DNA of 64,000 nt, from the IMG/VR virus record IMGVR_UViG_3300017763_003980. One strand, 5' to 3'. This document shows, piece by piece, positions 1 to 53,562 of the stretch. The translations under genes and the position numbers were made by a program. The stretch is from a virus (lineage: Duplodnaviria; Caudoviricetes). The number at the start of each line of letters is the position of its first letter. Positions within the stretch are counted from its first letter, which is position 1. The notes under the pieces were generated by a model, which had not been told where the DNA came from, made no database searches, and worked only from the letters and a program-made list of their open reading frames with translations.

Positions 1-67
1 ACACACTCTTTGCATTCATGTCAATTGCCGCAAGTATATCTTTTACTGGGAGTTTTTGCTGTGCCAT
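1..67 (-). CDS. 5' end of a gene running off the window edge (MAQQKLPVKDILAAIDMNAKSV...); possibly a clamp-loader small subunit (gp62-like)
   Basis: Translated by hand. ATG at 67 overlaps the 3' end of kdsB and the frame is open to the edge. The KLPxKDILAAID start resembles, from memory, gp62-like proteins of large T4-related phages. Only 22 codons are visible. Confidence 0.4.
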   Translation of the reverse strand, partial: MAQQKLPVKDILAAIDMNAKSV

Positions 68-723
68 TCTTCTAAGTCCTCCGGAGTATTAATCTCCATA
101 CCATTATATTGTACACTCAAAACTCCTACTTGCCAACCGTTTTTTAACCATCGGAGTTGTTCTAATTTTTCTACTTCTTCTTCCTGGGTTACTTCTAGTT
201 TACTATACAGTTCTAATGGATTACGTTTGTATCCATATACTCCCAGATGCCAGTCGCCATAACCAGTTAAGCCTCTGCCGAACCACAGTGCTTGATCACC
301 AGCACGTACCATTTTTACTGAACTTGGATCATTTTGTTTTTCTTCAGGCATTTGTGTATACACCGAAGTAACTGAATAATTTTTTAAATGCCAAATACAT
401 TTTTCAATAATATCAACAGTTACATCTGGCATATCACCTTGTACATTTATAAACTGTTTGTATTGGTCGAACCTACTATCTCTCAATACACCTGCACATC
501 TTTCAGTACCGTTTTCGTAAGGATCGTCATGTACAACTATATTTCCTTTAGGAAATAAACTAGCTATACGCTTACTATCTGTAAGCACAAAGGTGTCTAA
601 GCCCGTCTCTAAGCAACGATCGTATACTCTACGTATCATCGGTACTCCGTTAAGTAACTTCAACGGCTTTTCAGGGAAGCGTGTTGATGCTAACCTAGCC
701 GGTATTAGTATAGCTGTATTCAT
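43..723 (-). CDS. kdsB: 3-deoxy-D-manno-octulosonate cytidylyltransferase (CMP-Kdo synthetase)
   Basis: Motifs IPARLASTRFPEKPL, GTERC, INVQGD, HLGVYGY and EKLEQLRWL; directly downstream of kdsA. Confidence 0.95.
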   Translation of the reverse strand: MNTAILIPARLASTRFPEKPLKLLNGVPMIRRVYDRCLETGLDTFVLTDSKRIASLFPKGNIVVHDDPYENGTERCAGVLRDSRFDQYKQFINVQGDMPDVTVDIIEKCIWHLKNYSVTSVYTQMPEEKQNDPSSVKMVRAGDQALWFGRGLTGYGDWHLGVYGYKRNPLELYSKLEVTQEEEVEKLEQLRWLKNGWQVGVLSVQYNGMEINTPEDLEEWHSKNSQ

Positions 724-1477
724 GTATCTCTCCTACTACTCGATCAAAGTCCTCTAGCTTTAGCATATTAGGACCGTCACTTGGTGCATTATCTGGGTCA
801 GGGTGTACTTCTATAAAGAAATTCCTAATCCCCAAAGCACTACCTGCACGGCATAAGCCAGGAACGTAATCGCGATTACCGCCGCTACTGCCTCCAAGAC
901 CGCCTGGTTTCTGTACTCCGTGCGTGGCATCAAGTACCACAGGGGTGCTATAATTATGAAGCATATAGTCCAAACCAGTAAAGTCAACAACAAGAGTATT
1001 GTATCCAAAACTTGTTCCTCTCTCTGTTATCCAAACATCTTTAGCACCTTCTGTCTTTGATAGTATACCGTCCATGTCCCAAGGTGCAAGGAACTGGCCT
1101 TTCTTAATGTTTACAATTTTATCTGTAGCACAAGCCGCTTGTAGTAAATCAGTTTGTCTACATAAGAATGCAGGTATCTGTAGCACGTCTACAGCATCAT
1201 TGTAGTAGTTTACTATGTCTTTAATTTGTTCTACTGTATGAACGTCTGTGAGCGTCTTAGAGCCCACTACACCACGTATCTCTTGAAAGTCATGTAGTGT
1301 TGTATTAAAGCCTACTCCACGCTTGCCTTTCATGCTACTTCTATTAGCTTTATCAAAACTAGCTTTAAAATAATATTCTGCACCATACTTACGACATACA
1401 TCTGCACAATGTTGTGCAATCTCTAAGCTATGTTCTAAGCTTTCGTGTTGGCAAGGTCCTGCAATTATTCTAATCAT
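695..1477 (-). CDS. kdsA: Kdo-8-phosphate synthase
   Basis: Motifs IAGPC, FKASFDKANRSS, LQIPAFLCRQTDLL, NIKKGQFLAPWDM, ERGTSFGYNTLVVD, DATHGVQKPG and EVHPDPDNAPSDGPN. Confidence 0.97.
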   Translation of the reverse strand: MIRIIAGPCQHESLEHSLEIAQHCADVCRKYGAEYYFKASFDKANRSSMKGKRGVGFNTTLHDFQEIRGVVGSKTLTDVHTVEQIKDIVNYYNDAVDVLQIPAFLCRQTDLLQAACATDKIVNIKKGQFLAPWDMDGILSKTEGAKDVWITERGTSFGYNTLVVDFTGLDYMLHNYSTPVVLDATHGVQKPGGLGGSSGGNRDYVPGLCRAGSALGIRNFFIEVHPDPDNAPSDGPNMLKLEDFDRVVGEIHEYSYTNTG

Positions 1478-1929: not shown

Positions 1930-2201
1930 TTGTTCTCCTTTGATAGTAAATAGATATCTAAAACTTTTGAAAGACATTTTTTTAATGTCTTGTTTGTTCT
2001 AGCCAGCTCTGTTATTTCTTGCCAGTCTTTATATGTAAACAAGTCTCCTTGTTCCTTTGCTTTAGCACGATTGATGCCATCTGCATCTCCGCCTATAATC
2101 CATCTCGGAATGTCTTTATAAGGTTCATCTCTGTAACGTGCATACACAACGTTATCAACTCTTTCGTATATAAGTGCTTCGCCAGTTATTAGATTACTCA
2201 T
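1926..2201 (-). CDS. Hypothetical protein (91 aa)
   Basis: Tightly packed in the operon, with overlapping start and stop codons on both sides. Confidence 0.7.
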   Translation of the reverse strand: MSNLITGEALIYERVDNVVYARYRDEPYKDIPRWIIGGDADGINRAKAKEQGDLFTYKDWQEITELARTNKTLKKCLSKVLDIYLLSKENK

Positions 2202-2560
2202 TATTTTACCGGTGTACCAATAGTGCGTCTTACAATGTCATCGTGATTGAACTCTGCCCAATATAGCTCAAATGCTACACCATCTTTTAGTCCTTCAAAC
2301 TGATGTATCTTGCCAGGTTTAACTTGTGTAAAGTCACCTGCTTTTAAAATAGTTTCATCGACTAAACCTTCTTGTGCGCCATCTTGCCAAACACGAATTA
2401 GCATTTCGCCTGACTCAACAAAGAAGCCATTCCATTTAAATTGATGTTCATGCTCTGAACATTTGTATCCTGCTTTATATTCAATACGGTGAAATTCTAA
2501 TACACCATTTGCATGGACTAACTCTGTGTTACCCCAAATTTTACCAGCTTTGATTCCCAT
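2201..2560 (-). CDS. Small cupin (sugar isomerase-like)
   Basis: KIWG start, cupin metal motif 1 SEHEHQFKWNGFFVESG and motif 2 VKPGKIHQF. Confidence 0.8.
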   Translation of the reverse strand: MGIKAGKIWGNTELVHANGVLEFHRIEYKAGYKCSEHEHQFKWNGFFVESGEMLIRVWQDGAQEGLVDETILKAGDFTQVKPGKIHQFEGLKDGVAFELYWAEFNHDDIVRRTIGTPVK

Positions 2561-6963: not shown

Positions 6964-6992
6964 ATTATAGCTTAAGAAAGCTTAGATGTCAA
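6964..6992 (-). promoter_or_regulatory. Consensus sigma70 promoter TTGACA-N17-TATAAT; predicted leaderless transcript
   Basis: On the minus strand, TTGACA at 6992-6987 and TATAAT at 6969-6964, only 5 nt before the ATG at 6958. Confidence 0.85.
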
Positions 6993-7820
6993 GTTCTTTA
7001 ATGGTATTCCTGCAGATATTTCATCTAATGTATATTCAGTATGTGCATAGTCATTGAGCCATTGTTGCCTATCTGGCATTTTTGGATTCATTATATCGTT
7101 TAAATTAAGATTACCTACATCATATGCTAAACTACTTGGTCCTACGAATGCAGGCTTACCTGCAATAATACTGTGTGGACCTGGGTTACTGCTCCAACAA
7201 ACTGTTGCCCATGCTGCTCTAACATCAAAGTCGTAGTCGTCGTATGTACTTTCTATTTTAGTAGGGGTTTGCCGTATAACATTTTTAAAATCATTCTCAA
7301 CATACTGTACAGGATATCTTGGATGGGGCCGCCAGTATATGGGCATATCAGTATGTTCACGAATTGTGTTAATAGTATTGCCTAACCATGCAGTCATATT
7401 AGGCATTAGTTCCCATTGCTGACTTTTTTCGTGTTGTCCGCATATAAGAATATAATCGCCCTCAGTTCGCCAATCTTTAAGATGTAGTCCTAGCTTATTA
7501 GCTCTTGTGTAGTCATTACCTGTTGGTCCGAAGTAGGCGTCGCGATTAATACCATTCAATCCTACTTTCCATGTAGTGCCTCTTTTTATACCGCCTACTT
7601 CAAGTACTATGGTTGGTTTTTTATTGTGTTGATTATCTTGCCATATACGTTTATTTGCAGCCATTCGGCCATGCCAAAGAACACTCCAAATAACATCAAC
7701 ATCACTGCTCCTATCATTATTGCTAACATCATAGCCAGCATCCATAAGACTGTTAGCAAAGGCATCAAAAACTGGTCGGCTATTGAGTGCGCCATAATCT
7801 CTCCATAAACTAAACTTCAT
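6972..7820 (-). CDS. KpsS/KpsC-like (capsule synthesis, GT107-type) GT-B glycosyltransferase, paralog 1
   Basis: YILICGQ, YWRPHP, WSSNPGPHSIIAGKPAFV and DRQQWLNDYA. Start set at 7820 (MKFSLW). Confidence 0.6.
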   Translation of the reverse strand: MKFSLWRDYGALNSRPVFDAFANSLMDAGYDVSNNDRSSDVDVIWSVLWHGRMAANKRIWQDNQHNKKPTIVLEVGGIKRGTTWKVGLNGINRDAYFGPTGNDYTRANKLGLHLKDWRTEGDYILICGQHEKSQQWELMPNMTAWLGNTINTIREHTDMPIYWRPHPRYPVQYVENDFKNVIRQTPTKIESTYDDYDFDVRAAWATVCWSSNPGPHSIIAGKPAFVGPSSLAYDVGNLNLNDIMNPKMPDRQQWLNDYAHTEYTLDEISAGIPLKNLTSKLS

Positions 7821-8658
7821 TCCAATATGCTTCCTGCCTTCGTTCCATGAGGTCTTTGTTTCTGCTACGTCCTTCTTTCTTTCTTGCACCTTTTAAGTGA
7901 TCTAACCATTTACCTAATTCACTGTTAATTAGAGGATGTCCGCCGCCTCCTGTCTTAGCAGGATTGTTGTAAATGTTTTCACTATAATCGTGTGCAGTAG
8001 GAAAGTCTGCTTTTAAATTATTAAGTATGTGTCCAAACACATAGCTGTCGTGCCATTCTTCCAATTTAAATATACCGTTATCGGCATCTTCGTATACTCT
8101 TTCAAACTCTTTAATAAATTCATGACATACAGGATGGTTCAAGTTAAGACCGTAAAATCCACACTCTGGCCATGTTTGTGATCCTTTACCTCGACCTACA
8201 TAAGTTATCCATGCGTTTTCTGGCAGCAAGTTTACAAAGTCATTGTAGGACCAAGGACTATGTACAAACGTATCTGCATCCATCCACACACACCAGTCCT
8301 TAGAGCGTGTTACAGCGTCATACACTGCGTATGTTTTATTAGCAAAGCGTACAGCGTCCCATTTAAATTCTTTATGCCAGTCACGAGGTCTACGTGCTTT
8401 AATATCATCTGGCGGTATACCATTTGCTTTTGGTACATCTTTCCAACGCTCTTTAAATGCTACGAGTTTAGGTAATGCTTCAGTAGCATCTAATATAGTA
8501 ATTTGATCTGGGTCTGGATTAACTGGAGTACAACCTTCTGCATATACTAACAGTTTAATACGCTTATCTATATTTTTTGCAAAACTATCTAAGAATCTCT
8601 GTCCATAAACTTCAAGTCCTTCTTTATGAAATGTTGTTAGTGCTGTTATATTTTTCAT
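7810..8658 (-). CDS. GT-A nucleotide-diphospho-sugar transferase
   Basis: DAVRFANKTYAV, DxD motif WMDADTF, ECGF and WHDSYVF; paralog of 15446..16231. Confidence 0.75.
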   Translation of the reverse strand: MKNITALTTFHKEGLEVYGQRFLDSFAKNIDKRIKLLVYAEGCTPVNPDPDQITILDATEALPKLVAFKERWKDVPKANGIPPDDIKARRPRDWHKEFKWDAVRFANKTYAVYDAVTRSKDWCVWMDADTFVHSPWSYNDFVNLLPENAWITYVGRGKGSQTWPECGFYGLNLNHPVCHEFIKEFERVYEDADNGIFKLEEWHDSYVFGHILNNLKADFPTAHDYSENIYNNPAKTGGGGHPLINSELGKWLDHLKGARKKEGRSRNKDLMERRQEAYWNEV

Positions 8659-16231: not shown

Positions 16232-16294
16232 ATAATTTCCTTGTACATATAATTATTATTGATAGGAGTTATATCATGTCAATTACGAATCTTT

Positions 16295-43081: not shown

Positions 43082-46000
43082 GCTTCTCCCCACTTAATAA
43101 TAATATTTGAATTAATATCTGAACCTGTCACTTTATACACATTAATAGCTAACACGTCTGGACCATTTGGAAATGTACCTCTACCGCCTAATGGAGTGTT
43201 TGTAAGTTCTTTTAGATCTTTTAGATCTAGTGTAGAACGTTCTCCTGGCACAGCAATAAATGAGAATACAGTTTCGCCTGGTCTAGCAAACGGTGGTTGT
43301 TCAAATGTAACTTCAACTGTACCTGAGCTTAGTGCTAGTGTACCTGTATATGAGTTGTTAAAGTTTATCTCATAAAACGTATTCCCGCCCCAAGTAATAC
43401 TTTGTATACTGTTTATATAAGTGTTAGCAGGGAATGTCAATCCGTTGTTACCACCAGTAACCGCAGTGCCAACAATAGCCGATGCACTATCAACACTTGA
43501 TGTAGTAAAGTAACCATAGTTTTTGTTTACAAGTGCTGCATTAAATGTAACGGTAAAGTGGTTGGATGAGCTACCGCTGATCTGTCCTGAGAGTCGCCTT
43601 GATAGTCTAAAGTATGCCCAATCATTTGAATTTTGTCCACTGATGTAACCATAATCAATAGTAGTATTAGCTGGAATATTTGTGCCTGTAATAACCTTAC
43701 CTTCAACAATACTTGTATCAGTTGTACCAAAGGTAGCAAAGTATTCTTGTGGATTGATGTAAATGTAATAGTTATTATTATAACCACCAACATAGCTAGG
43801 TCTAGTACCAAACTGTCCTGTAATCGAAGCCACAGATGTTATGTTAGCTGTAGTAGCTGATGTACCATCTGTCCATGTAACACCACCACCAGATGCAATT
43901 TGTGCAAAACTAGGCTGACCACCTTGTGCCACACCATTTAGTCCTGTCCAGTTAACGTCACTTGGATTAAGAGGATAGTTGTTAGGATTTAGCACACCTT
44001 CGATAACAATACCCCCGGAACCTGTATCTGATGTCACCTCAAGTCCGTTAAGTAGTAATTGTGCTCTATTAAGCAGTTCTCGCTCTCCTAAGTCACCTGT
44101 AATAGCGTTAGAAACACTAGGTGCTAGTCGCATCATAAATGCAGTCTGTTTAGTTGTACTAACTGTGATTCCTGTTTCAGCGTAACTAAAAATGTAACCT
44201 CTATCTTCATCAAATCCGCCATCTGTAAGGAACGCACTACCCCAGTGACTAATAAGTGGTGTAATTGTTTGTGAAATAATAACAACACCTGTTCTAGCTA
44301 GGTGTGTTACTGCTGAGCCTCCTGTGTAACTACGTTCTGCTCCTGCTTGGAATGTAAGTAAATTAGCAGCTCTGCTTACACCAGTTAGTGTATTTGTTTC
44401 TTTGTTGTTAGCTGTGTACGTCATTACTTCGTTGTCAATGTATACAGTTGCTTGGTATGGAAAGAAGCTGCTATCTTCTAATTCAATAGTAGTTTGACTT
44501 GCATCCATTTGAGTTTTTAACTTTCCTGGAGGACCTTCGTTAGTAACTTCGTAACGCACAGGCAAGTTACCTGAACGCATAAATGCTTCTGTGTTTACGT
44601 TTGAATTACGCATTCTATGTGCAAAAACAAAATTACCATTTGAACCACGTACCATCCAATCAATAAATCCAGCACCATACCATGTATACTGAATTCCAAT
44701 CATCTGCATCTTAGCAATGTCCATATTATAACCGCTTGGACCAGTGCCATCTAATCTGTCTAAGTTAAACTCACTTTGTTTGGCTTTTTTATCACTTACT
44801 AGTGCTACTTTTGCACCTGTAATGTTTATAACGCCGCGCCAGTCTGGTGTTACTGACATTGCAGTATCACTACTAACATGACTTACAACGTGTGTCATAC
44901 CTTTGATAATAATTCTATCACCGGCCTTTAATTGATCTCTAAATCTAGTGTTTGTCCCTACAATAGCATTTTCATCTACATTAAGTGCAATAGTTCCGGC
45001 AATTTGTTTTGTTCCTGTACGCTGTACTGCACTAATTTGTGTACCATCAAACTCCCAGAAAATTCCGTTTTGATCGTCAAATATTCCAGAACGTACAGTA
45101 GCGCCATGCCAGCTTACAACACTCATTTGTGCAGAAAATCCTAGTACTGCTGTAGTTGCACCCAATCTACGTTTTGCTCGTACTTTAAATGTTCTTTCGT
45201 CTACAACTGATGAAACTGTATAATCAAACTCTTCGCCAACACCTGTGCTAACGCCGCTGTTGTATCCTTCTGTTTCTATTCCTAGTAAACGTATTACACC
45301 ACCTACTTGTACACCGTGATCGTTATCATCTGTAGTAATAGTAATTAAACTATCAAGTTCTACACCATCTGCTACTACACTCTGTAGATCGTAACTTGGT
45401 GCAAATAGAGCACCAGTTGTATACATAATACCTTTACCTGACTGGTATCTAATATACTTTTTACTTTGACGTATTGCTTGTGCTCCATGTTGTGGACCGC
45501 CAGTACCTAGCTGTACGCCTCCGTCATATGGTCTATGCACAAAGAAGCTGTCTGGCCTCGGATATACAATTCCTTGTAGTACGTTACTTGCATCTACTGT
45601 AATTGCTCCAGTAGTTCTAGCTTGATATCTTAAACTAGTAACACTAGGCACCTCTGTTGCAAAAAATGAGCCGCTAGCTAGTTCGTGATTATTTGTACCA
45701 CTATCACTTGTAATATTTACAATAAATGTATCGCCTGGAACTAATCCGTGTGCCGCAGGCCAGTTCATATCAATAGTAGCTAGAGCTGCGTAGCTTATTG
45801 TTTGATCTACATTAATAAAAGACGATGTGGCTTCTGATACTGTAATTGTGGAAATAATATCAATATTTGTGCCAGGATTAGCAATAGTATAATTTGCAGC
45901 TACACTAGTAATACCTCCATTACTTGCACCGTTTACATACAGCTCTACGTCATTAAGGGGAGATGATCCTTCTAATAATGTACCTGGAATATTAATTCTA

Positions 46001-49000
46001 TCGCCTACTTTATATCCAGAACCTGTTGAAAAAATACTAATATTATCATAAGAACTAAAATTTCTTCTTAAACTAAACGTTGCACTTGTACCTACATTTG
46101 GTTGATTTGTCCCTGTTACTGCGAATGGTCCTGTTGGTTGTGCTGCTGTTCCTGTTATTGTTATGCCAGTTATTCTACCAGCTGCAACATCGTCAATTGA
46201 TGTAACTGTAGCTATTGCATCATTAGCAGGTGTTGCACCTCTTAAATTAGTTCCTAATAATTTAAGCTGTTGTCCAATATTATACCCTAGCCCTCCAGGA
46301 TTTTCAATCTGTATATTAGTATATTCAGTATCAGATAGCTCAACTGTAAATGTTGTTCCTGTACCTTGTCTAGCTGATCCGCTAACAGAGTTAGCAGTTC
46401 TTCCGTTATACGAAGTACCTGTAGTAGTATATGTTAAAATTGCACCATTAGCATCAACACTAACAATAGTGCCTGTAATATCGTTTGCTGGTGTTGCTCC
46501 TCCTAGTCCTGGTGCATTACCAGCAATAGTAAAAGTTTCTCCTGCAAGATAATTAAGTCCTCCACCGCCTGTGACAGTATAGCTTGCTCCGTTTATTGTT
46601 ACAGTAAATGTTGCTCCGCCATCTCCACCTGCTGTGTTAGAAGTAAAAGGTACTGTAGTATATTGATCAGATCTTTGTGGCGCAGAATTAGTAGTAAAGT
46701 CTATAGCCGAGATAGAACCTACTGCACCTACACTGGCTGCATTAAAGGTAATGTTAGCACCACCACCTCCGCCTAATACAGCATCAGCAATAGTAATTGT
46801 ATCTCCAGCAGTTACGCCTGTGCCTGCACTTACAATTGTAATTTCGTTTATATCAACATCGCCTGCTGTAGTGATACTTGCTACATCAAATGTTAACGCT
46901 GCGGCACCACCGCCTCCTAGATTAGCATCAGCAATAGTAATTGTATCACTTACCGCATTAGCAGAACCTATTGTAGCAATAGTAATACTTACTATCGAGC
47001 CGCCGCCACCTACTTGTATATTAAATGTGCCAACTGTACCTGAGCCACTACTTGTACCAGTTACGCCATTGTATGTTCCTAATGTACGACTAGCATCAGC
47101 AGCACCAATATTGTTTACACTAGTAATTCCTCCTGCAGGTCTTACAATAACATTATATGTAGATCCACCACCGCCTGTGCTTGCTACACCATTGTATGTA
47201 CCAGGAGTTCTGTTTGCAGGAACTTGTGTAAGGGTATTAATACTGAGTACCTCTCCGCCTGACGTCACTCCTGTAACAGTTACATAATTATTATTAAATT
47301 CTGAGGCGCCCGTAGGCTGAATTACATCTCCTGCTAATACAATAGTTTCCCCTATTAAGTAGCCGGATCCTGCATTATTAATAGTTACTCCAGTATATAC
47401 GCCATTCAAGTATGTAACATTAAAGTTTCCATTTATGCCTGCACCACCGTATGCTTCGTGTGAAACAACACCTAAATTAGCATAACCATTAAAACTTAAT
47501 CCTGATATGTCTGCTGTATTAATATCACCATCACTGTTAACACTAGTAACCACTAGTGTAACATCGTTTGCTGGAGTGTCGCCTCCGAAATCAGTTCCTA
47601 AGAATTTTATATTATCTCCAACCGCATAATTCAACCCGCCGTTAGTAATACTATTAAGTACATATTGGTTACTTGAATCTTGTGATGGAGAAATACTAAA
47701 TTCTGCACCATTACCATTAAATCCTACATTACTACCAGACACAGCACTATATGACACAATATTACCAAATCTTGGACTTGTAAAGTTACCGCTAAACTGT
47801 ATTCCTTTACCGCTTGCGCCTACACCTACTGTTTGTACATAAATTGCTGAGCCATCACCTCTATCTACCGCTTGGTTAACAGCTATTCCTGTAGTACTTT
47901 CTACTTCAAGTGTATCAGTACCTATAGCTGTTGTTGCTGTTGTAGTTGGTGTTAAAAATGTTCCTCCGCCAGCACTAGTATCAATTATTTGGGTAGCTTG
48001 AGAACCTACAGGAAGTCCAGCATGAGATAATGGAGAGCCAACTTCTGGAGCAGCTCCATCAAATGGGATAATTGTGCTACCAGGTAATACTGATAACTGT
48101 GTTACAAAACTACCAGATGACCCGTTACTTGCTATAGAAAAATCTGGCTGGCCGATGCTTGCTCCTGTATAAAACCCTGCTTTTCTTAGCTGACAATACG
48201 TAGTTACAAGCACTTCGCCATTAGATGTACCAACTTTAGCTTTTGCAAAGTAAGTAAATGTTTTATTTGTAGGTACAGTGTTTACAATAAAAGATCCTTC
48301 AGCCCTTGCTGCGCCAACAACACTATCTTCTAATGCTTTAATTGTAATAGGTTGCCCTGGCTCAAAGCCGTGTGCAACTACTGTTGTAACTGTAATTAAG
48401 CTTGCACCAATACCTGATGTACCTGAACTTGCATCTGTTACAACATTTTCTACTGCTGTGTTTGTCGCTGGTATTTCGTATACACTTGGATATCCGCGTA
48501 ACGTGCCAATAGCAGACCATTTAGTTGGCTGTAGACCATACTCAAAGTCAGCATCAAGCATACTTAAAGGATTAGCAATACGCATACGTTCAATAGCATC
48601 TGTGCCAAAGTCATATGGTCTAGTTGTTACAACACTTTTTCCATTTTCAACCTGTTCAACAAATACTTGTAAATGATCTGTTGATAGGTGCGAGCTTGTG
48701 TCGTAATTAAACCAAATTTTAGTTATAGCATCAGTAGTTTGTAAATAAGTGCTAAAATCCTTATCATATCCTTTAGTAATTAATTTTGCATCAGCACCGT
48801 TTTCAGAATTTGAAAAGTTATAAATAATTTCATTTTTTGTAGTATTAGTTATAAGAAGTAATTCATCTAATCCCCAACGCCCTTGTACTTTTATACTACC
48901 AACACCGCTTTCAACAAGTGTCGGAAGTTGATCAAGGCCTAGTGTAATAACATCGATAATAATAGCACTAAGTTCATTAATTCTAGGAATTGCACCAGCT

Positions 49001-49449
49001 TCGGCATTATCGCCACTAGTATCAGTTGTTTGAATTACTCCTGTTTGATTACCAGAGTATGCAGTATTAGTAAAAATATAATCTCTAATTATTTCTTTTA
49101 TTTTGGCATGAGTTTGTATTTCAGGCTGTCGGTCGCCGTCAACTTGTGCTACAGAGCCTTCCCAATAATAACTTGCTATTTTTCTTGTTTCTTCATTGCC
49201 ACTATATCGTAAATCCCACAAGTAAGCATCAATTACATATCCTACATCTCTTTCACATTTAGCTTCGTTATATACATACCCTGCAAATCCTGTTGCGTTC
49301 GCAGCCACTTGTGCAGCTATCCATGCTGTTGCTTCTTTTTGTATATAATACTTGTTACCATATAGTAGAGCATATGCATTTGGATAAACATATCCTGTTC
49401 TACTCATTCCTGGCTTGAAGACGTAATCTTTTATCTGTGTTTTTGCCAT
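43072..49449 (-). CDS. Very large virion structural protein (tail fibre/baseplate appendage), 2125 aa
   Basis: KCERDVGY and DADFEYG motifs typical of large T4-like phage structural proteins; Gly/Thr/Ser-rich central repeats. Confidence 0.8.
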   Translation of the reverse strand: MAKTQIKDYVFKPGMSRTGYVYPNAYALLYGNKYYIQKEATAWIAAQVAANATGFAGYVYNEAKCERDVGYVIDAYLWDLRYSGNEETRKIASYYWEGSVAQVDGDRQPEIQTHAKIKEIIRDYIFTNTAYSGNQTGVIQTTDTSGDNAEAGAIPRINELSAIIIDVITLGLDQLPTLVESGVGSIKVQGRWGLDELLLITNTTKNEIIYNFSNSENGADAKLITKGYDKDFSTYLQTTDAITKIWFNYDTSSHLSTDHLQVFVEQVENGKSVVTTRPYDFGTDAIERMRIANPLSMLDADFEYGLQPTKWSAIGTLRGYPSVYEIPATNTAVENVVTDASSGTSGIGASLITVTTVVAHGFEPGQPITIKALEDSVVGAARAEGSFIVNTVPTNKTFTYFAKAKVGTSNGEVLVTTYCQLRKAGFYTGASIGQPDFSIASNGSSGSFVTQLSVLPGSTIIPFDGAAPEVGSPLSHAGLPVGSQATQIIDTSAGGGTFLTPTTTATTAIGTDTLEVESTTGIAVNQAVDRGDGSAIYVQTVGVGASGKGIQFSGNFTSPRFGNIVSYSAVSGSNVGFNGNGAEFSISPSQDSSNQYVLNSITNGGLNYAVGDNIKFLGTDFGGDTPANDVTLVVTSVNSDGDINTADISGLSFNGYANLGVVSHEAYGGAGINGNFNVTYLNGVYTGVTINNAGSGYLIGETIVLAGDVIQPTGASEFNNNYVTVTGVTSGGEVLSINTLTQVPANRTPGTYNGVASTGGGGSTYNVIVRPAGGITSVNNIGAADASRTLGTYNGVTGTSSGSGTVGTFNIQVGGGGSIVSITIATIGSANAVSDTITIADANLGGGGAAALTFDVASITTAGDVDINEITIVSAGTGVTAGDTITIADAVLGGGGGANITFNAASVGAVGSISAIDFTTNSAPQRSDQYTTVPFTSNTAGGDGGATFTVTINGASYTVTGGGGLNYLAGETFTIAGNAPGLGGATPANDITGTIVSVDANGAILTYTTTGTSYNGRTANSVSGSARQGTGTTFTVELSDTEYTNIQIENPGGLGYNIGQQLKLLGTNLRGATPANDAIATVTSIDDVAAGRITGITITGTAAQPTGPFAVTGTNQPNVGTSATFSLRRNFSSYDNISIFSTGSGYKVGDRINIPGTLLEGSSPLNDVELYVNGASNGGITSVAANYTIANPGTNIDIISTITVSEATSSFINVDQTISYAALATIDMNWPAAHGLVPGDTFIVNITSDSGTNNHELASGSFFATEVPSVTSLRYQARTTGAITVDASNVLQGIVYPRPDSFFVHRPYDGGVQLGTGGPQHGAQAIRQSKKYIRYQSGKGIMYTTGALFAPSYDLQSVVADGVELDSLITITTDDNDHGVQVGGVIRLLGIETEGYNSGVSTGVGEEFDYTVSSVVDERTFKVRAKRRLGATTAVLGFSAQMSVVSWHGATVRSGIFDDQNGIFWEFDGTQISAVQRTGTKQIAGTIALNVDENAIVGTNTRFRDQLKAGDRIIIKGMTHVVSHVSSDTAMSVTPDWRGVINITGAKVALVSDKKAKQSEFNLDRLDGTGPSGYNMDIAKMQMIGIQYTWYGAGFIDWMVRGSNGNFVFAHRMRNSNVNTEAFMRSGNLPVRYEVTNEGPPGKLKTQMDASQTTIELEDSSFFPYQATVYIDNEVMTYTANNKETNTLTGVSRAANLLTFQAGAERSYTGGSAVTHLARTGVVIISQTITPLISHWGSAFLTDGGFDEDRGYIFSYAETGITVSTTKQTAFMMRLAPSVSNAITGDLGERELLNRAQLLLNGLEVTSDTGSGGIVIEGVLNPNNYPLNPSDVNWTGLNGVAQGGQPSFAQIASGGGVTWTDGTSATTANITSVASITGQFGTRPSYVGGYNNNYYIYINPQEYFATFGTTDTSIVEGKVITGTNIPANTTIDYGYISGQNSNDWAYFRLSRRLSGQISGSSSNHFTVTFNAALVNKNYGYFTTSSVDSASAIVGTAVTGGNNGLTFPANTYINSIQSITWGGNTFYEINFNNSYTGTLALSSGTVEVTFEQPPFARPGETVFSFIAVPGERSTLDLKDLKELTNTPLGGRGTFPNGPDVLAINVYKVTGSDINSNIIIKWGEAQA
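45930..47660 (-). repeat. About seven imperfect coding repeats GxGYxxGDxIxxxGxxLGGxTPAND
   Basis: For example GLNYAVGDNIKFLGTDFGGDTPAND, GLNYLAGETFTIAG..GGATPAND, GLGYNIGQQLKLLGTNLRGATPAND and GSGYKVGDRINIPG..GSSPLND. Confidence 0.75.
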
Positions 49450-49455
49450 ATTATT

Positions 49456-50322
49456 CTAAATCCCAAATGCTATTGCAAACGCTGTCGACGTTGTATCTAC
49501 ATATTTTTTGTTAGGCACTGCATTAATTCCTGTAACTGCTCCGCTTAGTGTAGCTGTTGTAAATGCAGCTGTTGACGGTGTTGTTGCTCCGATAGTTGAG
49601 TTATCTATTGCACTGTTATTTATAGGACCTACTATCCTACCAGCAACACTATCGATTAGTAATGTGCTATCATCTGAAAAAACTGAGCCTTTTAAATCAC
49701 CCGTCACTCCCCCGGTAGCTGAAATCATATTAGCTACACTCATAGTTCCGCCTACATTTACATTTCCTTGTATTCCTGTTCCGCCTGTAACCTTTAAGGC
49801 ACCAGTTGTTGTACTAGTACTTGCTGTTGAGTCAGTAATACCTACTGTACTAAAATTTCTTGCTTGATCTAAAACTGTAATAACGCCACGCACACTGCCG
49901 GAAGAATTACCATAATAAAGAGTATCTGGAGCACTTAATGGAACGGTCCATGTAAGCCTTCCGGATGATTTATTTAGTGCCGAAGCTCCAACAGTACTAT
50001 CACTGTGACGTAGTCCGTTACTATAGTTTATAGCTGGATCTACTGCACTAAAAATATTAAATGTAAGAGTAGTAAATGCTAAATCAAATGTACTAGTTTG
50101 ATTTCTAAAAACCGTAATAGGAGGTTGATCTATTACTTGTCCATCAAATCTAAAATTACCATTGCTTTCTATAAAATCAAAGTCAGCTGCAATACCTTGC
50201 TCGTCTGCATTAACAGACAACGTTAAAGTAGTTGCAGTAATGTTTCCTGCCGCATCAACAGTAAAACTAGGGCTTTTAAAGCCGAAGTCTGATCTTAAAG
50301 GTGTATTAACAGTCGTTGACAT
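49456..50322 (-). CDS. Fibre-like virion protein
   Basis: STSTTTGALKVTGGTGIQGNVNVGG, LKGSVFSDDS and NKKYVD fibre motifs; late box upstream. Confidence 0.7.
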   Translation of the reverse strand: MSTTVNTPLRSDFGFKSPSFTVDAAGNITATTLTLSVNADEQGIAADFDFIESNGNFRFDGQVIDQPPITVFRNQTSTFDLAFTTLTFNIFSAVDPAINYSNGLRHSDSTVGASALNKSSGRLTWTVPLSAPDTLYYGNSSGSVRGVITVLDQARNFSTVGITDSTASTSTTTGALKVTGGTGIQGNVNVGGTMSVANMISATGGVTGDLKGSVFSDDSTLLIDSVAGRIVGPINNSAIDNSTIGATTPSTAAFTTATLSGAVTGINAVPNKKYVDTTSTAFAIAFGI

Positions 50323-50361
50323 TTGTTACTCCATATAGTATATTTAGCCTACTTAGGAATG

Positions 50362-50763
50362 TCAACTAGTTAACGGATTTTGATTTTGAAAGTAATTTGC
50401 AGTGAAAATAAACTTAGCACCTTCGTATCCTGTCTTAGCTGATATTAATAAGTCTACATACGATTGGTTAACTGTTACTGATAAGTCTACAAGATCATTA
50501 CCCAAATTACTTCGACCAACTACACTTAGATTAGCATAATCCACACCGACTGCAACAATACATTTTACAATTTCTTTATTGGCATTGTTATAATCAATTG
50601 AAATAGTAAATTCTGCTGCACTAAATTCGCCGGCGTGCCAACGCTCTACTTGTGTGTTTGTGTAAGCTTGTTTCCAGGGTCCGTTGTGAGAAGTAGCACC
50701 ATTGTTTGTTACTAATAGTGTTTTTTTGATACCTTCTTTAAAGTAATTTGCGATATTAAACAT
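50362..50763 (-). CDS. Small beta-rich hypothetical protein, probably structural
   Basis: GATAAATA at 50789-50782 with an SD; lies among the tail genes. Confidence 0.65.
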   Translation of the reverse strand: MFNIANYFKEGIKKTLLVTNNGATSHNGPWKQAYTNTQVERWHAGEFSAAEFTISIDYNNANKEIVKCIVAVGVDYANLSVVGRSNLGNDLVDLSVTVNQSYVDLLISAKTGYEGAKFIFTANYFQNQNPLTS

Positions 50764-50787: not shown

Positions 50788-52614
50788 TCAGTTATTCCAT
50801 ACTGTAATAAGCTTGTTAAATTCAGGCAAATATAAATATTCAATATCACTAGTAGATAGAGTACGTATAGCATCATCTAAGGTTTCTACTAATGGTTCTC
50901 CTCCTAAATTAAAACTTGTGTTAAAGATGATAGGAACGCCTGTTTTTTCTTTGAATGTTTTTATAATATCGTAGTAATGAGGATTTTGTTCTCTACTTAC
51001 TGTTTGAATCCTGCATGTACCGTCAACGTGTATAATAGCAGGAATTTTCTCTTCGACTCCTGGTTGACAATTTACAGCATACATCATCGTAGGTGAACTT
51101 TCCATGCCACGCAGATCAAACCATTCATGTGCATCCTCTTCAAGTATACTACCAGCAAATGGTCTAAAATATTCTCTACGTTTAATTTCGTTTACAAAGT
51201 CTTTGCCGTCTTCAAATGTTGGATCAAACATTAAGCTTCTATTTCCTAATGCACGTGGTCCATTTTCAGATCTGCCTTGAAAGTTTGCAACAATATTCTT
51301 AGAAGTCATTAGTGCTACAACATCTTCGTGTGTAGCGTCTTTTATTTCTGCGTCATATTTTTCTACTGTGCTATAAACATCTTGTTCTGAATATTCGTAT
51401 TTAGGTCCTAAAAATACATCATTAGCACGATTATTTACTTTTGTATCTTGACTAATTTTATAGTGTTGATACAATGCCGCCCCCATCGCTGTTCCGGCAT
51501 CATTAGAAATAGGTTCTACATAAATTTCAATACCTTCATCTTTTAAAGCATCTAAGTAATGATAATTTGCAACACAATTTAATCCATATCCGCCGCTAAT
51601 TACAACTTTGTTTTGTTTTGATATTTTCACAGCATGTCTAATAAGTTTTACTACAGCCTCTTGTGTCGCTTGCTGTACAGCATATGCCAAATCTCTTCTA
51701 TTTTGCAAATATGTAACATCGTCTTGATCAAATTCTAGATCAACCTCATCACTATTTAATTCTTTATATTGTGGCATATTGATTACAGCACCATTAGGAT
51801 ATCTTGGAACAATTAAATTTCTATTAGTAAGAGGTATATTCATATTACTATCATTATCCATAATAGAAGGAATATTATCATTAGGTTTGCCGTAAGGTGA
51901 TAGCCCCATTGTTTTTCCAGCTTCAATTGCTGTAAATCCGCAATATTCTGTAACAGCTTCATATGCTTTTACAATTCCTGCACGATCGTGCATAAATGTA
52001 TTATACACTGCACCCGGGTCGTCCCAGCCATCACCGCCCCAGTTATCAATGTTAACAGAAGGTATTGCATCTCTAGCGCCTAAACTTTTATGCAAAGTTT
52101 TAAAGTTTGCTGGGTAATTACATTTATAAATGCTTTCAGTTTCCCATATAGTCATTTGATCATTTTGATGTTGTAAAGGGAAAAATGTTCCAGCGCCGTC
52201 AACAATAAGTGCAACTGCACTATCAAATCCTGATCTATAAAATGCCATTGCGGCATGCATTTTATGATGGTGCATAGCTACATCAACTACTTGACCTTCT
52301 GTTCGAGGATCTTCTGAATTTCTTCTAGGGGTCTCAATCAGTCCTATTTTTCTTGCAAGACCGCTATACACATCTTCACCAGAATAATCTAATATTCCTG
52401 CGGTATTTAATGGAGTAGTATGACAAATAACCAAATGATCAAGTTTATCAGTATACTCTTTAATTTTAAGCATACTAGCTAATGCGCCGCCATCGTACTT
52501 TAAACGTGTTAGTCTTTCTTCTTCAATACTGAATACAATCTTGCCATCTTTAAGTAAGCATACTCCTGAGTTATGCCCTCTAGCTACACCTGCAATCCAA
52601 ACTGGCTTAGTCAT
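50788..52614 (-). CDS. O-carbamoyltransferase (NodU/CmcH/TobZ family)
   Basis: GHNS, EEERLTR, HHKMHA, DGAG, GKTMGLSPYG, GGYGLNCVAN, GPRALGNRS, KRREYFRPFA and NTSFN. Confidence 0.95.
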   Translation of the reverse strand: MTKPVWIAGVARGHNSGVCLLKDGKIVFSIEEERLTRLKYDGGALASMLKIKEYTDKLDHLVICHTTPLNTAGILDYSGEDVYSGLARKIGLIETPRRNSEDPRTEGQVVDVAMHHHKMHAAMAFYRSGFDSAVALIVDGAGTFFPLQHQNDQMTIWETESIYKCNYPANFKTLHKSLGARDAIPSVNIDNWGGDGWDDPGAVYNTFMHDRAGIVKAYEAVTEYCGFTAIEAGKTMGLSPYGKPNDNIPSIMDNDSNMNIPLTNRNLIVPRYPNGAVINMPQYKELNSDEVDLEFDQDDVTYLQNRRDLAYAVQQATQEAVVKLIRHAVKISKQNKVVISGGYGLNCVANYHYLDALKDEGIEIYVEPISNDAGTAMGAALYQHYKISQDTKVNNRANDVFLGPKYEYSEQDVYSTVEKYDAEIKDATHEDVVALMTSKNIVANFQGRSENGPRALGNRSLMFDPTFEDGKDFVNEIKRREYFRPFAGSILEEDAHEWFDLRGMESSPTMMYAVNCQPGVEEKIPAIIHVDGTCRIQTVSREQNPHYYDIIKTFKEKTGVPIIFNTSFNLGGEPLVETLDDAIRTLSTSDIEYLYLPEFNKLITVWNN

Positions 52615-52626
52615 ATTTTTTCTATC

Positions 52627-53562
52627 CTAATTAATATCTTTTTTAATTTCTTCAACAATATGTTTTTCTATTTGATCATTCATTTGCATTATACCTTCAT
52701 TTACTCTATCTGAATATTCATCAATTGTAATACGTATAGGACTGTAAACTCTTGATATTTCTCCCATATCAAGAACATTAAAAAAGTCGCAATCAGGATA
52801 AGATGTATTAATAGGAAAAGTACTTCCTATAATAACAGTACTTGGTACATCAAATGCATAAGCCATATGCTGTCCTACACTGTCACAACCTACAAAATGA
52901 TCTGCTTCTGCAATAATTGAACACCAAGTTCTAAGATCTATTCCTTGAGGCACTGCAATTTGTCTGTCAACGCCATGTTTTTTAAAGTCAATTGCTAGCT
53001 CTCCCATAAAAATAATTGCATAATCATTACTAATATTTTTTATAATATTAATTAAGTTAGTTGGTTCAATACTTCTACCGCTATAATCAGTAAGTGTTCC
53101 GTTTTGTTCTGTAATTCCTCTACCAAACGGTTGAATAACGATAGCTTTTTCACATTTAGTTTTTTCTTTTACTTCTTTAATTACTTGGCCAGCTTGTAGC
53201 AGTTCACCTTTACTAAGTCTAATAGTTGGTTTAGGTAAATCTCTAATGCCTTTATTATTAATAGCAATATCATATGCTTGTGCTAAACTACATTTTTGGT
53301 TATAATATTCCCAAACTCTGTAAGGTTCAGGACTTGCTAAATTCATATCTTTTAACTTATCTTCAAACAAGTTTTTATGCCAATGATCATATGCTTTAGC
53401 ATGTAGTAAAGGGTGTCCTTTAAAAAAATCTGTGCCGCCTTCACATATAATTAGAAAATCGTCATCTGGATTTTCTTCATGAAATTTTTCTAGTGCAGGT
53501 ATTGAACATACTACTCTTCCTGCGCCACCGTTAACAAAAAATGCTGTGTTTCTTTCTGACAT
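52627..53562 (-). CDS. GT9 (ADP-heptose heptosyltransferase-like) glycosyltransferase
   Basis: GGAGRVVCSIPAL, VIQPFG and ADHFVGCDSVGQHMAYAFDVPSTVIIG. Confidence 0.75.
   Translation of the reverse strand: MSERNTAFFVNGGAGRVVCSIPALEKFHEENPDDDFLIICEGGTDFFKGHPLLHAKAYDHWHKNLFEDKLKDMNLASPEPYRVWEYYNQKCSLAQAYDIAINNKGIRDLPKPTIRLSKGELLQAGQVIKEVKEKTKCEKAIVIQPFGRGITEQNGTLTDYSGRSIEPTNLINIIKNISNDYAIIFMGELAIDFKKHGVDRQIAVPQGIDLRTWCSIIAEADHFVGCDSVGQHMAYAFDVPSTVIIGSTFPINTSYPDCDFFNVLDMGEISRVYSPIRITIDEYSDRVNEGIMQMNDQIEKHIVEEIKKDIN

Follow-up and report, generated by a model that had tools for sequence, protein, structure and literature searches.

This DNA, analysed as a window of 64,000 nucleotides, comes from an uncultured giant (T4-like jumbo) marine phage that is widespread and carries two conserved, separable glycan gene modules. 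The modules should make Kdo and heptose donors and attach these sugars to some acceptor. We consider the enzymatic part of this explanation, taken alone, to be probable; the explanation as a whole, in which the acceptor is most likely the phage particle, is tentative. The evidence consists of family and fold assignments, paralogy, motif states, synteny, and promoter motifs with their conservation, and from it we infer the donor sugars used, the replacement of missing SIS isomerases by cupins, and the acceptor. The T4-like context, proposed earlier from the sequence alone, is backed by genes in the window for gp32, UvsX, UvsW, a T4-type TerL, gp15, a sheath protein, and a dNMP kinase. The same sequence-only reading had described one LPS-core-like system. 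Kdo and heptose modules occur separately: cyanophages P-SSM2 and S-CAM1 have the heptose module only, and no Kps-like gene is seen on three partial contigs that carry KdsA in other lineages. The arrangement reads as two separable modules in preference to a single joint system. The sequence-only reading was confirmed in part as an observation (most of its listed genes hold), and its interpretation is partly supported. Identification is solid for KdsA, the carbamoyltransferase, a GSCFA protein, and one methyltransferase, and KdsB, HldE, HldD, and GmhB match their own families best with scores below cut-off. Support is at the level of a lead for the sulfotransferase, the second methyltransferase, and all but one of the four "GT-A" calls.

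The first module would supply CMP-Kdo through KdsA, KdsB, and a linked small cupin, all on the minus strand. KdsA (Kdo-8-phosphate synthase, 695..1477) passes both NCBIfam equivalog cut-offs, with 330 bits for NF003543 (cut-off 242) and 320 bits for TIGR01362 (cut-off 314). The KdsB-like CMP-Kdo synthetase (43..723) matches Pfam CTP_transf_3 at 1.7e-28, and its best five NCBIfam matches are all KdsB models, at 170 bits and thus below the cut-off of 193. No KdsD, KdsC, or GmhA gene is present in the 64-kb window. In 35 of 40 related loci, a homologue of the small cupin (2201..2560, Pfam Cupin_2) lies no more than 10 kb from KdsA, with three or more different gene orders; the cupin is a candidate stand-in for the missing arabinose-5-phosphate isomerase.

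The second module would make ADP-heptose with HldE, HldD, a cupin, and GmhB, encoded on the plus strand. The HldE-like bifunctional heptose-7-phosphate kinase/heptose-1-phosphate adenylyltransferase (38828..39976; Pfam PfkB and CTP_transf_like) has a shortened kinase domain and reaches 305 bits with NCBIfam HldE, below the cut-off of 521. Scores are also below cut-off for the HldD-like ADP-heptose 6-epimerase, which has a short-chain dehydrogenase fold (40595..41413; TIGR02197, 224 bits vs 275), and for the GmhB-like heptose-1,7-bisphosphate phosphatase (42401..43081; NF006506, 140 bits vs 178), which occurs in 30 of 54 related HldE loci. The cupin of this operon (42067..42468, Pfam cupin) was found in 50 of the 54 loci and in P-SSM2 and S-CAM1, and HldE, HldD, and the cupin occur together in 50. 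There is no SIS-fold gene, and the cupin is a candidate substitute for the absent GmhA isomerase. Two 2OG-Fe(II) oxygenase genes interleaved with HldD (39966..40598 and 41403..42086; Pfam) are accessory, with homologues in only nine and five of the 54 loci, and possibly tailor the heptose. This enzyme inventory supports the earlier proposal of a phage that produces both donors, CMP-Kdo and ADP-heptose, itself and has transferase-like enzymes to match.

Heptose would be used by a GT9-fold transferase (52627..53562, minus strand) that has no Pfam hit, matches PHROG 8954 at 1e-143, and is 47%–56% identical to genes of P-SSM2 and S-CAM1. Its fold model aligns to 3tov with a VIA Z of 19.1 (264 residues), to WaaF with 16.9, to WaaC with 15.7, and to TibC with 15.5; other GT-B folds reach at most 13.1. 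The model suggests that the gene probably encodes a heptosyltransferase. A NodU/CmcH-type O-carbamoyltransferase (50788..52614, minus strand; Pfam Carbam_trans_C 3e-58, Carbam_trans_N 3e-29) follows it in all 77 related loci in which the DNA continues. Fibre genes flank the pair in every case, across at least three rearrangements, and P-SSM2 and S-CAM1 have it embedded among fibre genes in the same order. This invariant pair would add a heptose and then carbamoylate it, the same chemistry as in the carbamoyl-heptose of the Pseudomonas LPS inner core, where WapO carbamoylates the second heptose (PMC8005017). Fibre-like genes 3' of the pair (43072..50763, minus strand), recognized by synteny in 44–72 of 80 loci and by composition, encode proteins of 133 aa, 288 aa (26% Ser+Thr), and 2125 aa (20% Ser+Thr), the last homologous to a virion structural protein of S-CAM1. 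The acceptors had been pictured as Ser/Thr-rich virion proteins; the enrichment in these neighbouring fibres is moderate, at 20%–26%, and a composition check found no mucin-like tracts in them. They are candidate acceptors only.

The likely consumers of CMP-Kdo lie in a glycan island on the minus strand, fixed between uvsX and uvsW and found at the same place in 38 loci. It is surrounded by genes for replication and recombination and not by structural genes. Four KpsS/KpsC-like genes in the island (TRANSFERASES; genes 6972, 8655, 9587, and 13344) are real paralogues with 26%–30% identity in the paralogue alignment, and Pfam and PHROG gave no hit for any of them. Each has its own motif type, kept among orthologues down to about 30%–40% identity. 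The full set of Glu, QxxxD, and HP is present only in gene 13344 (13344..14264; Glu73, QRPGD with Asp145, His182-Pro183), and the other three are altered consistently within their orthologue groups and lack the nucleophile Asp. Gene 6972 (6972..7889, QHEKS and HP) has Ser at that position, a state kept in 31 of 31 orthologues, and gene 8655 (8655..9590, QRDGG and HP) has Gly. Gene 9587 (9587..10408, PSDKP/RNKG) has lost both Q and HP; its orthologues share the loss, so the protein probably has no catalytic activity or a different mechanism. The fold model of 13344 (pLDDT 88) has KpsC, WbbB, and KrkA as its top 27 Foldseek matches, with VIA Z of 14.6 (253 residues), 12.4, and 10.9, respectively. 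Its whole-length matches are all retaining beta-Kdo transferases, and by this model gene 13344 is the best candidate for a true enzyme of that type.

Checks of the other glycosyltransferase calls supported GT8 for gene 10401, in addition to the GT9 and KpsC/WbbB/KrkA folds; the remaining GT-A calls rest on DxD motifs, language-model neighbours, and sub-threshold hits. Gene 10401 (10401..11084) scores 25.7 bits with Pfam GT8, just above the cut-off of 24.3, and matches PHROG 28018 at 1e-49. Its homologue in CcrColossus (gp129, 34% identity) adjoins a Kps-like gene, and that in S-SCSM2R (48%) lies near KdsA/KdsB. Gene 7810 (7810..8658; WMDADT) is the most conserved gene of the island and a probable GT-A transferase, judged by atlas neighbours named nucleotide-diphospho-sugar transferase and a Pfam hit of only E 0.095. 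Its probable GT-A paralogue at 15446..16231 (28% identity) is accessory (13 of 38 island loci). A possible GT-A gene (14814..15446; ILDADS) has a sub-cut-off match to DUF6492 (E 0.005); a DUF6492 gene also occurs in an unrelated Kps-like cassette. A fusion of a nucleotidyltransferase (RfaE domain II/TagD-like by Pfam and NCBIfam) and a PMI-type cupin (11084..11863; CTP_transf_like 2e-14, MannoseP_isomer 3.5e-16) is found in 35 of the 38 loci; it is the first gene of the island core, which runs from 11863 down to 6972. A SAM methyltransferase (14254..14814; Methyltransf_23 and Methyltransf_11) is kept in 32 loci, a possible, weakly matched methyltransferase (11901..12386; Methyltransf_11, E 0.026) in 14, and an accessory GSCFA-family gene (12383..13342; Pfam 2.6e-35) in seven, with a sulfotransferase in its place in one relative. 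The possible sulfotransferase of this phage (24002..24793, minus strand; Sulfotransfer_3, 2e-4 over 26 residues, below cut-off) is a weak candidate whose link to the glycan genes is hypothetical. Together, gene 13344, the three altered-site paralogues, the GT8 and further probable GT-A enzymes, the nucleotidyltransferase–cupin fusion, and the methyltransferases would build a short, partly methylated oligosaccharide with Kdo.

The earlier proposal that donors are made early and transferred late stood in part. Perfect sigma70 promoters of the early type (TTGACA-N17-TATAAT) occur four times in the window (0.04 expected), and, as had been noted, two of these (12/12 matches, kept in relatives) head the donor units. 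The promoter at 6964..6992 (minus strand) serves the h388-uvsW...kdsA-kdsB unit, with an ATG 5 nt past the -10 box in leaderless geometry; that at 38793..38821 (plus strand) serves the heptose operon, with an ATG 6 nt past the -10 box, and is kept upstream of HldE wherever HldE follows NUDIX. Among the transferase units, late-type boxes precede GT9-CarbT and the island core. Of the 14 minus-strand ATAAATA sites, 11 have a start codon no more than 70 nt downstream (0.8 expected), and the 133-aa fibre-like gene has its own box at 50788. The reported box TATAAATA is real and canonical (53615..53622, minus strand), heads GT9-CarbT, and is conserved in closer relatives only; a terminator-like hairpin (53652-53671) lies just upstream. 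The late-type box TATAAGTA before the island core (11869..11876, minus strand), followed by 5 nt and ATG (leaderless), is borne out by relatives, which have canonical [CT]ATAAATA-N5-ATG there. A third proposed box, ATAATTA near 16250, is instead the -10 element of a sigma70-like promoter (TTGACA-N16-AATAAT, 16255..16282, minus strand; 11/12 match) that lies between genes, 24 nt ahead of the start codon. This promoter precedes the island front (15446, 14814, 13344, and others), so these transferases do not fit late expression, and relatives show translational coupling of the front to the uvsX/h151 unit. Some relatives have GT9-CarbT after TTGACA-N17-TATCAT, and others, like the cyanophages, have HldE and the carbamoyltransferase gene directly coupled. 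Comparison across related phages indicates that the gene modules are conserved and the early-supply/late-transfer division is not.

Decoration of the virion, above all of tail-fibre proteins for the second module, is the leading reading of the acceptor, although we put it at somewhat under an even chance. Its best support appears to be gene position, not timing: GT9-CarbT is embedded in fibre genes and adjacent in all 77 loci, and in CcrColossus a cassette of Kps-like, GT8, methyltransferase, and GT9 genes immediately follows a tail gene and precedes lysis genes. Conserved late boxes before GT9 and the island core also favour it. GT9-fold enzymes such as TibC can modify proteins; to our knowledge, characterized Kps-like and GT9 relatives have glycolipid or glycan acceptors in every case but TibC/Aah. 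Several observations count against a virion target, namely the position of the island among replication and recombination genes, the sigma70-like promoter and uvsX/h151 coupling of a front that includes the fully equipped 13344, the sigma70-type promoter of GT9-CarbT in some relatives, and fibres lacking mucin-like acceptor tracts. The missing KdsD, KdsC, and GmhA and the three paralogues without the nucleophile also count against the explanation as a whole. Receptor-binding gene neighbours equally suit receptor masking, which belongs to a rather unlikely alternative, the standard "lock-out" interpretation of phage LPS genes (PMC12801897, PMC5332604). Here, soluble phage enzymes acting on the inner side of the host membrane would attach Kdo, heptose, and carbamoyl groups to lipid A-core or another glycolipid exported by host transport, with no phage exporter required, and would mask receptors (superinfection exclusion or fewer progeny lost on debris) or stabilize the cell. 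The solved relatives KpsC, WbbB, KrkA, WaaC, and WaaF all use glycolipid or glycan acceptors, WapO acts on an LPS core (PMC8005017), the donor operons and island front have early-type promoters, and masking genes could co-evolve with adjoining receptor-binding fibres. However, cyanobacterial LPS is without Kdo and heptose (PMC4515613), which makes a canonical LPS-core acceptor unlikely for the cyanophage copies and explains why such phages carry donor pathways. It also fits poorly with the "host-mimicking" glycan proposed earlier, which is unsupported. In this lineage, the late boxes before GT9-CarbT and the island core imply a timing that is late for a surface change, and strict embedding in fibre modules and a cassette between tail and lysis genes, as in CcrColossus, are unusual for exclusion genes.

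Transfer of Kdo or heptose by some of the enzymes to a modified base of phage DNA is improbable. Metagenomic phage gene clusters make 5hmC-Kdo and 5hmC-heptose, and phage transferases can add these sugars to 5hmC (bioRxiv 10.1101/2023.12.21.572611); the island and kdsA/kdsB lie among gp32, uvsX, uvsW, and dNMP kinase with early promoters, and near KdsA one other lineage carries a gene resembling thymidylate synthase. Yet no gene for a cytosine or uracil hydroxymethylase or a C5-methyltransferase, and no recognized TET/JBP gene, is found in the 64-kb window, eight transferase-like genes plus methyltransferases far exceed known DNA systems, and GT9-CarbT lies in fibre genes. We give still less credence to a metabolic helper that boosts host LPS precursor supply, or to inert "stuffer" DNA with no dedicated product. 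For cyanophage LPS genes, Sullivan et al. 2010 left the choice between function and stuffer DNA undecided (PMC3037559). The pathways do look incomplete, but the donor genes are accompanied by dedicated transferases, the cupins co-travel with KdsA and HldE, and gene order, catalytic motifs, and promoters are kept in dozens of loci at 60%–90% identity. The families are also very large (4600 Kps-like representatives at 50% clustering, 3843 hits for GT9, and 4255 homologues of 7810), which argues against junk DNA.

An uncultured T4-like jumbo phage is the source of the window, in which gp32, UvsX, UvsW, gp15, a 1088-aa sheath protein, a large terminase of T4 type, and a dNMP kinase serve as markers. 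Among cultured phages, Pseudomonas phage PA5oct has the closest terminase (54% identity), and a megablast search with 44 kb of window sequence detected no close DNA relative among deposited phages. DNA near-identical to the window was identified in seawater and viral metagenomes from at least 10 studies, and orthologs of its genes occur on contigs of up to ~346 kb. Exact matches to pieces of kdsA and of the island (the Kdo genes at ~6972–16231, between uvsX and uvsW) were found at low depth in contigs from four RNA libraries (three studies), where DNA carry-over is possible and the contigs give no timing, strand, or level.

The glycan genes of this phage are read as two separable modules rather than as one joint system. 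Module 1 comprises the island and kdsA/kdsB. Its gene order was recovered in 38 related loci: UvsX, h151, island, h388, UvsW, h168, cupin, h91, KdsA, and KdsB, where h151, h388, h168, and h91 are conserved flanking proteins. The island has a constant core of 13344 (minus-strand genes are named by their first coordinate), a nucleotidyltransferase-cupin fusion, a GT8 gene, 9587, 8655, 7810, and 6972, and extras that vary by locus (15446 or 14814, methyltransferases, GSCFA, a sulfotransferase, and an SDR). Module 2 comprises a plus-strand heptose operon (HldE, 38828–39976; HldD, 40595–41413; a cupin, 42067–42468; GmhB, 42401–43081) and a minus-strand pair coding for a GT9-fold transferase (52627–53562) and a NodU/CmcH-type carbamoyltransferase (50788–52614). 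The two genes are adjacent in this order in each of the 77 loci with continuing DNA, and the pair always lies between fiber-gene blocks, across at least three rearrangements; the heptose operon adjoins either the 2125-aa fiber gene or the pair itself. Conservation of the gene set across relatives, a check proposed in the sequence-only reading, came out positive for the island core and for the pair. The single LPS-core-like system proposed there was not upheld, because the heptose module occurs in the cyanophages P-SSM2 and S-CAM1 without KpsS/KpsC-like (Kps-like) genes. Three partial contigs of other lineages (34%–77% complete) bear KdsA and no Kps-like gene, which at that completeness indicates only that the two are not always neighbors. 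In an unrelated metagenomic cassette, a Kps-like fusion accompanies WavE, DUF6492, and GT2 genes.

Two smaller features of the island were observed. The 7810-type gene (7810–8658, minus strand) is inverted in most relatives (L097–L167), where a conserved GTTAAATA box of its own lies upstream, about 25–30 nt ahead of a Shine-Dalgarno sequence and ATG. The h151 gene that follows uvsX (16295–16750, minus strand) codes for a conserved 151-aa protein without a Pfam match and contains a terminator-like hairpin (16523–16547); it may be a UvsY-like mediator, given its size and location.

The four TRANSFERASES genes of the island core (6972, 8655, 9587, and 13344) are paralogs with 26%–30% identity. 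None has a Pfam or PHROG match, and none reaches Pfam PF05159 (Capsule_synth) at E values up to 0.01. A profile of the four paralogs identified a family with 4,600 representatives at 50% clustering, almost all unannotated, and PF05159 matched two of 67 sampled members. The AlphaFold model of 13344 (pLDDT 88) has retaining beta-Kdo transferases as all of its top 27 Foldseek matches. Whole-length alignments were obtained with KpsC (Z 14.6, 253 residues aligned, rmsd 4.1), WbbB (Z 12.4), and KrkA (Z 10.9), whereas other GT-B folds align with one domain of the model only. This match was computed on 13344, to which the other three are tied by their sequence identity. When a diverse Kps-like profile was compared to PDB sequences, WbbB ranked first at an E value of only 0.28, with RxHP aligned to His265-Pro266 of WbbB.

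In retaining beta-Kdo transferases, the nucleophile is the Asp of a QxxxD motif, with His serving as acid and Glu as base (PMC10148158, PMC9587256). All three residues are present in 13344 (Glu73, Asp145 in QRPGD, and His182-Pro183), and its predicted donor is CMP-Kdo, for which the sole argument is the co-encoded KdsA and KdsB. The QxxxD position reads QRDGG in 8655, QHEKS in 6972, and PSDKP in 9587. Across the family, the nucleophile position is Asp in 28 of 67 members, Ser in 20, and Gly in 13, while an acidic residue (Glu or Asp) occupies position 73 in 66 of 67 members and the HP motif is found in 61 of 67 and in three of the four paralogs (it is missing from 9587). Each altered motif state is kept within its own orthologous group, indicating stable functional types rather than decay. 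In 9587 (9587–10408, minus strand), the active-site Gln and His-Pro are lost in all orthologs (PSxK and RxKP instead), and it looks like a maintained copy that is non-catalytic or re-purposed. A "moved nucleophile," in which an acidic residue located two positions ahead of the missing Asp acts as a substitute, was considered and rejected, as the pattern is absent across the family. Of the four KpsS/KpsC-like transferases originally proposed, paralogy, the fold, and the full catalytic set of 13344 stand, but the nucleophile Asp is absent in three.

In whole-length fold, Glu base, QxxxD nucleophile, and HP histidine, 13344 resembles KpsC/KpsS (GT107), WbbB (GT99), and KrkA (GT140) (PMC10148158, PMC9587256, PMC12887879). 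CMP-Kdo supply is likewise encoded alongside, and several Kps-like modules stand side by side, comparable to dual-module KpsC. In contrast to these enzymes, the phage proteins form an essentially viral family with about 10%–14% sequence identity to them and no PF05159 match, and are single-domain proteins of about 300 aa without a membrane-anchoring tail. Three of the four paralogs lack the Asp, one of these also lacking the Gln and HP, and the setting differs in lacking kpsMTED export genes as well as any lyso-phosphatidylglycerol or O-antigen context.

The donor-synthesis genes kdsA/kdsB and hldE/hldD/gmhB were identified as proposed. KdsA scores above both NCBIfam equivalog cut-offs. For KdsB, HldE, HldD, and GmhB, the best match is their own family, yet scores are under the curated NCBIfam cut-offs, which marks them as divergent phage versions; HldE has 382 aa compared to about 475 aa, with a shortened kinase domain. 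Both pathways are incomplete within the window: the CMP-Kdo pathway (KdsD, KdsA, KdsC, and KdsB) lacks an SIS-type isomerase and a KdsC phosphatase, and the ADP-L-glycero-D-manno-heptose pathway (GmhA, HldE, GmhB, and HldD) lacks GmhA (SIS fold). A cupin of 119 aa (2201–2560, minus strand) is a candidate non-SIS arabinose-5-phosphate isomerase. Among 40 related loci, 35 have a homolog of it close to KdsA, arranged as KdsA-KdsB-cupin, as KdsA-cupin-KdsB, or with the cupin 1–3 kb upstream (L168–L208). The cupin of the heptose operon has homologs in 50 of 54 HldE loci and in P-SSM2 and S-CAM1. We infer that these two small cupins may supply the missing isomerase steps of both pathways. The P-SSM2 gene annotated as "phosphoheptose isomerase" gives no evidence for a GmhA, having weak HAD-type matches alone (E 0.025–0.14).

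Other genes near the donor genes were also recorded. A NUDIX hydrolase gene (38363–38803, plus strand) is ahead of HldE in 47 of 54 related loci and ahead of the GT9-carbamoyltransferase pair in some relatives; possibly it controls ADP-sugar levels. The stretch from uvsW to kdsA (2562–3859 and 1477–1977, minus strand) codes for two paralogous proteins with an HxD...H pattern and no family match (204 and 228 aa) and for a 166-aa protein in which a PRPP-binding-like motif was noted (Pribosyltran, E 0.06); all three vary in presence among relatives. In one locus from another phage lineage (L195:8930–18096), KdsA lies upstream of UvsX together with a cytidylyltransferase-like gene, a PEP carboxykinase that possibly supplies PEP for KdsA, the cupin, a divergent thymidylate-synthase-like gene, and a UDP-glucose dehydrogenase; KdsB was not seen in its vicinity.

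In Module 2, the GT9 assignment agrees with the model comparison, in which GT9 structures outrank all other GT-B folds (3tov, Z 19.1; WaaF, 16.9; WaaC, 15.7; TibC, 15.5; next non-GT9 fold, 13.1). The model has a pLDDT of 74 with two low-confidence loops, and the protein has no Pfam (PF01075) or NCBIfam match. Some homologs are named heptosyltransferase (JGI) or GT9 (NCBI), and PF01075 is found on 22% of members of a nearby Atlas cluster. Use of ADP-heptose is predicted solely from linkage to HldE, HldD, and GmhB. The carbamoyltransferase has both expected NodU/CmcH O-carbamoyltransferase domains, a Kae1-like N-terminal domain (Carbam_trans_N, 103 bits, cut-off 24) and a YrdC-like C-terminal domain (Carbam_trans_C, 197 bits, cut-off 27), and scores far under the NodU equivalog cut-off. 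Among the four GT-A transferases proposed from sequence, 10401 (GT8) is the only one above a Pfam threshold. The other three (7810, 15446, and 14814) have DxD motifs, language-model neighbors, and sub-threshold matches as their basis, and profile comparison of the 7810 family with 10401 gave no relation (probability 4%), so 7810 and 15446 are not confirmed as GT-A by alignment. Neither sequence nor profile searches of PDB sequences returned a significant match for the GT9 protein, 10401, the cupin, the 7810 family, or the Kps-like set. In PHROGs, Kps-like and 7810-type proteins are not represented by any family, and none of the transferases has a membrane helix.

Cyanomyovirus "LPS gene" clusters were reportedly described by Sullivan et al. 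in 2005, and the usual guess for the role of phage "LPS genes" has been host-surface remodeling. Such clusters occur in the large cyanomyoviruses P-SSM2, S-SSM7, and S-CAM1 (PMC3037559). P-SSM2 and S-CAM1 have fiber genes, a GT9-like gene (PSSM2_307), a Nol-like carbamoyltransferase, a heptose adenylyltransferase and kinase, a cupin, an epimerase, and a further fiber gene, with the same content and fiber-embedded position as in the window and 39%–56% identity to its proteins. Cyanophage HldE is split, co-oriented, and coupled with the carbamoyltransferase gene, whereas in the window the heptose genes make up their own sigma70-driven operon, which converges on the 2125-aa fiber gene. P-SSM2 and S-CAM1 have no Kps-like island, and most cyanophages have no KdsA/KdsB; among the cyanophage records, both were found in S-SCSM2R only, which also has a GT8 homolog. 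The Pseudomonas inner core enzymes (WaaC/WaaF and WapO, PA5005; PMC8005017) similarly combine a GT9-fold transferase, a NodU/CmcH-type carbamoyltransferase, and ADP-heptose supply, and the predicted phage product is a carbamoyl-heptose. In the phage, however, the pair is an invariable two-gene unit embedded in tail-fiber genes, and heptose kinases and a core ligase are absent. Caulobacter phage CcrColossus (gp126–gp131) has a Kps-like gene (gp128), a GT8 homolog (gp129, 34% identity), a methyltransferase, and a GT9 in one block; unlike the window, it has no donor-synthesis genes and one Kps-like copy rather than four, and the cassette lies between tail and lysis genes, whereas the island lies between recombination genes.

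The window has four perfect copies of TTGACA-N17-TATAAT compared to 0.04 expected, before gp32, dNMP kinase, h388/uvsW, and hldE. The last two, conserved in relatives, match the proposal that donor units stand behind perfect sigma70 promoters. On the minus strand, 11 of 14 ATAAATA copies are no more than 70 nt upstream of a start codon (0.8 expected), including sites before the GT9 gene and a 133-aa gene, and ATAAATA marks late genes. There is no canonical ATAAATA box between 3993 and 22395. At 11869, however, TATAAGTA-N5-ATG occupies the same place as [CT]ATAAATA-N5-ATG in relatives, in agreement with the late-type box proposed there, and so the island core very probably has a late, leaderless promoter. 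ATG follows the -10 or late box by 5–7 nt with no Shine-Dalgarno sequence at 6958–6992, 38793–38830, and 11861–11876, a geometry kept in relatives that suggests leaderless mRNAs. The third late box, proposed near 16250, is instead part of TTGACA-N16-AATAAT, and the island front is translationally coupled to h151 in most relatives. Early supply followed by late transfer, as proposed, is consistent with the boxes before GT9 and the island core, but the pattern is not universal: in some relatives the GT9-carbamoyltransferase pair is driven from TTGACA-N17-TATCAT, and in others, as in cyanophages, HldE is coupled directly to the carbamoyltransferase gene.

The most probable enzymatic reading, which we consider likely, is that Module 1 would build a Kdo-containing, partly methylated oligosaccharide, and that Module 2 would add heptose and then carbamoylate it, as in the Pseudomonas inner core (PMC8005017). 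The acceptor can be assigned more tentatively. The phage particle is the favored acceptor, at somewhat under an even chance, based on the fiber embedding, the position of the CcrColossus cassette, and the late boxes. With neither Kdo nor heptose in cyanobacterial LPS (PMC4515613), the cyanophage copies are unlikely to act on a canonical core acceptor. This absence would also explain why phages supply their own donors, and it supports the particle as target. Chloroviruses, mimiviruses, and mycobacteriophages provide a parallel, as particle glycosylation in these viruses also involves virus-encoded sugar-nucleotide synthesis and transferases; for mycobacteriophages, capsid and tail glycosylation was reportedly described by Freeman et al. 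in 2023 (cited in PMC11256854). We know of no T4-like phage of Gram-negative hosts for which a particle glycan has been shown. Viral Kdo synthesis has a predicted precedent in CroV (PMC9614988) and Fadolivirus, with Kdo use in CroV itself only predicted, and the enzymes of chloroviruses, mimiviruses, CroV, and mycobacteriophages belong to other families than those in the window.

Arguing against the particle are the early-type island front, the position of the island among recombination genes, and the activity of all solved relatives except TibC on glycolipids. Also against it, the fiber proteins are only moderately Ser/Thr-rich, where the proposal had Ser/Thr-rich virion acceptors. A host envelope glycolipid would suit the glycolipid-active relatives, and, as a further point against the particle, a location next to receptor-binding genes also suits receptor masking; we regard this acceptor as rather unlikely. 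Phage 5hmC is glycosylated with Kdo or heptose by LPS-enzyme-related transferases that use CMP-Kdo or nucleotide-heptose (bioRxiv 10.1101/2023.12.21.572611), so DNA is an acceptor that is real in principle. The usual partner genes (a cytosine methyltransferase, a TET-type oxygenase, and T4 beta-GT-like transferases) were not recognized in the window, and a DNA acceptor is improbable. A role as helper or inert cargo is very improbable, and the remaining probability falls to something else. Taken to its full extent, the particle reading would have a very abundant marine T4-like lineage and large cyanophages making LPS-type sugars and coating their own tail fibers with carbamoyl-heptose and methylated oligo-Kdo, with cupins taking over the initial step of both pathways from SIS isomerases and a virus-specific Kdo-transferase-like radiation that swapped out the catalytic Asp in most copies. 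This combined scenario is doubtful as a whole.

Earlier publications cover both the "LPS genes" of cyanophages and predicted Kdo pathways of viruses (PMC3037559, PMC12801897, PMC5332604, PMC9614988). A literature search turned up nothing on the cupin partners, on the invariant linkage of the GT9-carbamoyltransferase pair to fiber genes, or on the viral Kps-like family and its four stable active-site types. The analysis splits phage "LPS genes" into two defined modules, names 13344 (Asp145) as a testable catalytic candidate, and ties the GT9-carbamoyltransferase pair to tail-fiber genes across distant phage lineages. Should the particle prove to be the target, abundant marine phages would have self-supplied virion glycosylation, with a bearing on host range, particle decay or grazing rate, and phage engineering. 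A host-surface or DNA target would instead make these enzymes a new chemistry for exclusion or anti-restriction. Because cultured carriers exist (P-SSM2, S-SSM7, S-CAM1, S-SCSM2R, and CcrColossus), the question of the target is directly testable.

Additional genes were observed outside the two modules. Three fiber-module proteins of about 260 aa (54764–57875, minus strand) have 30, 23, and 19 cysteines and alternate with tail-assembly-chaperone-like genes. A TnsA-like endonuclease gene (27684–28121, minus strand) lies among structural genes, and an HNH endonuclease gene (33984–34319, plus strand) lies between the sheath and dNMP kinase genes with an opposite-strand overlap with the latter; both are kept in relatives.
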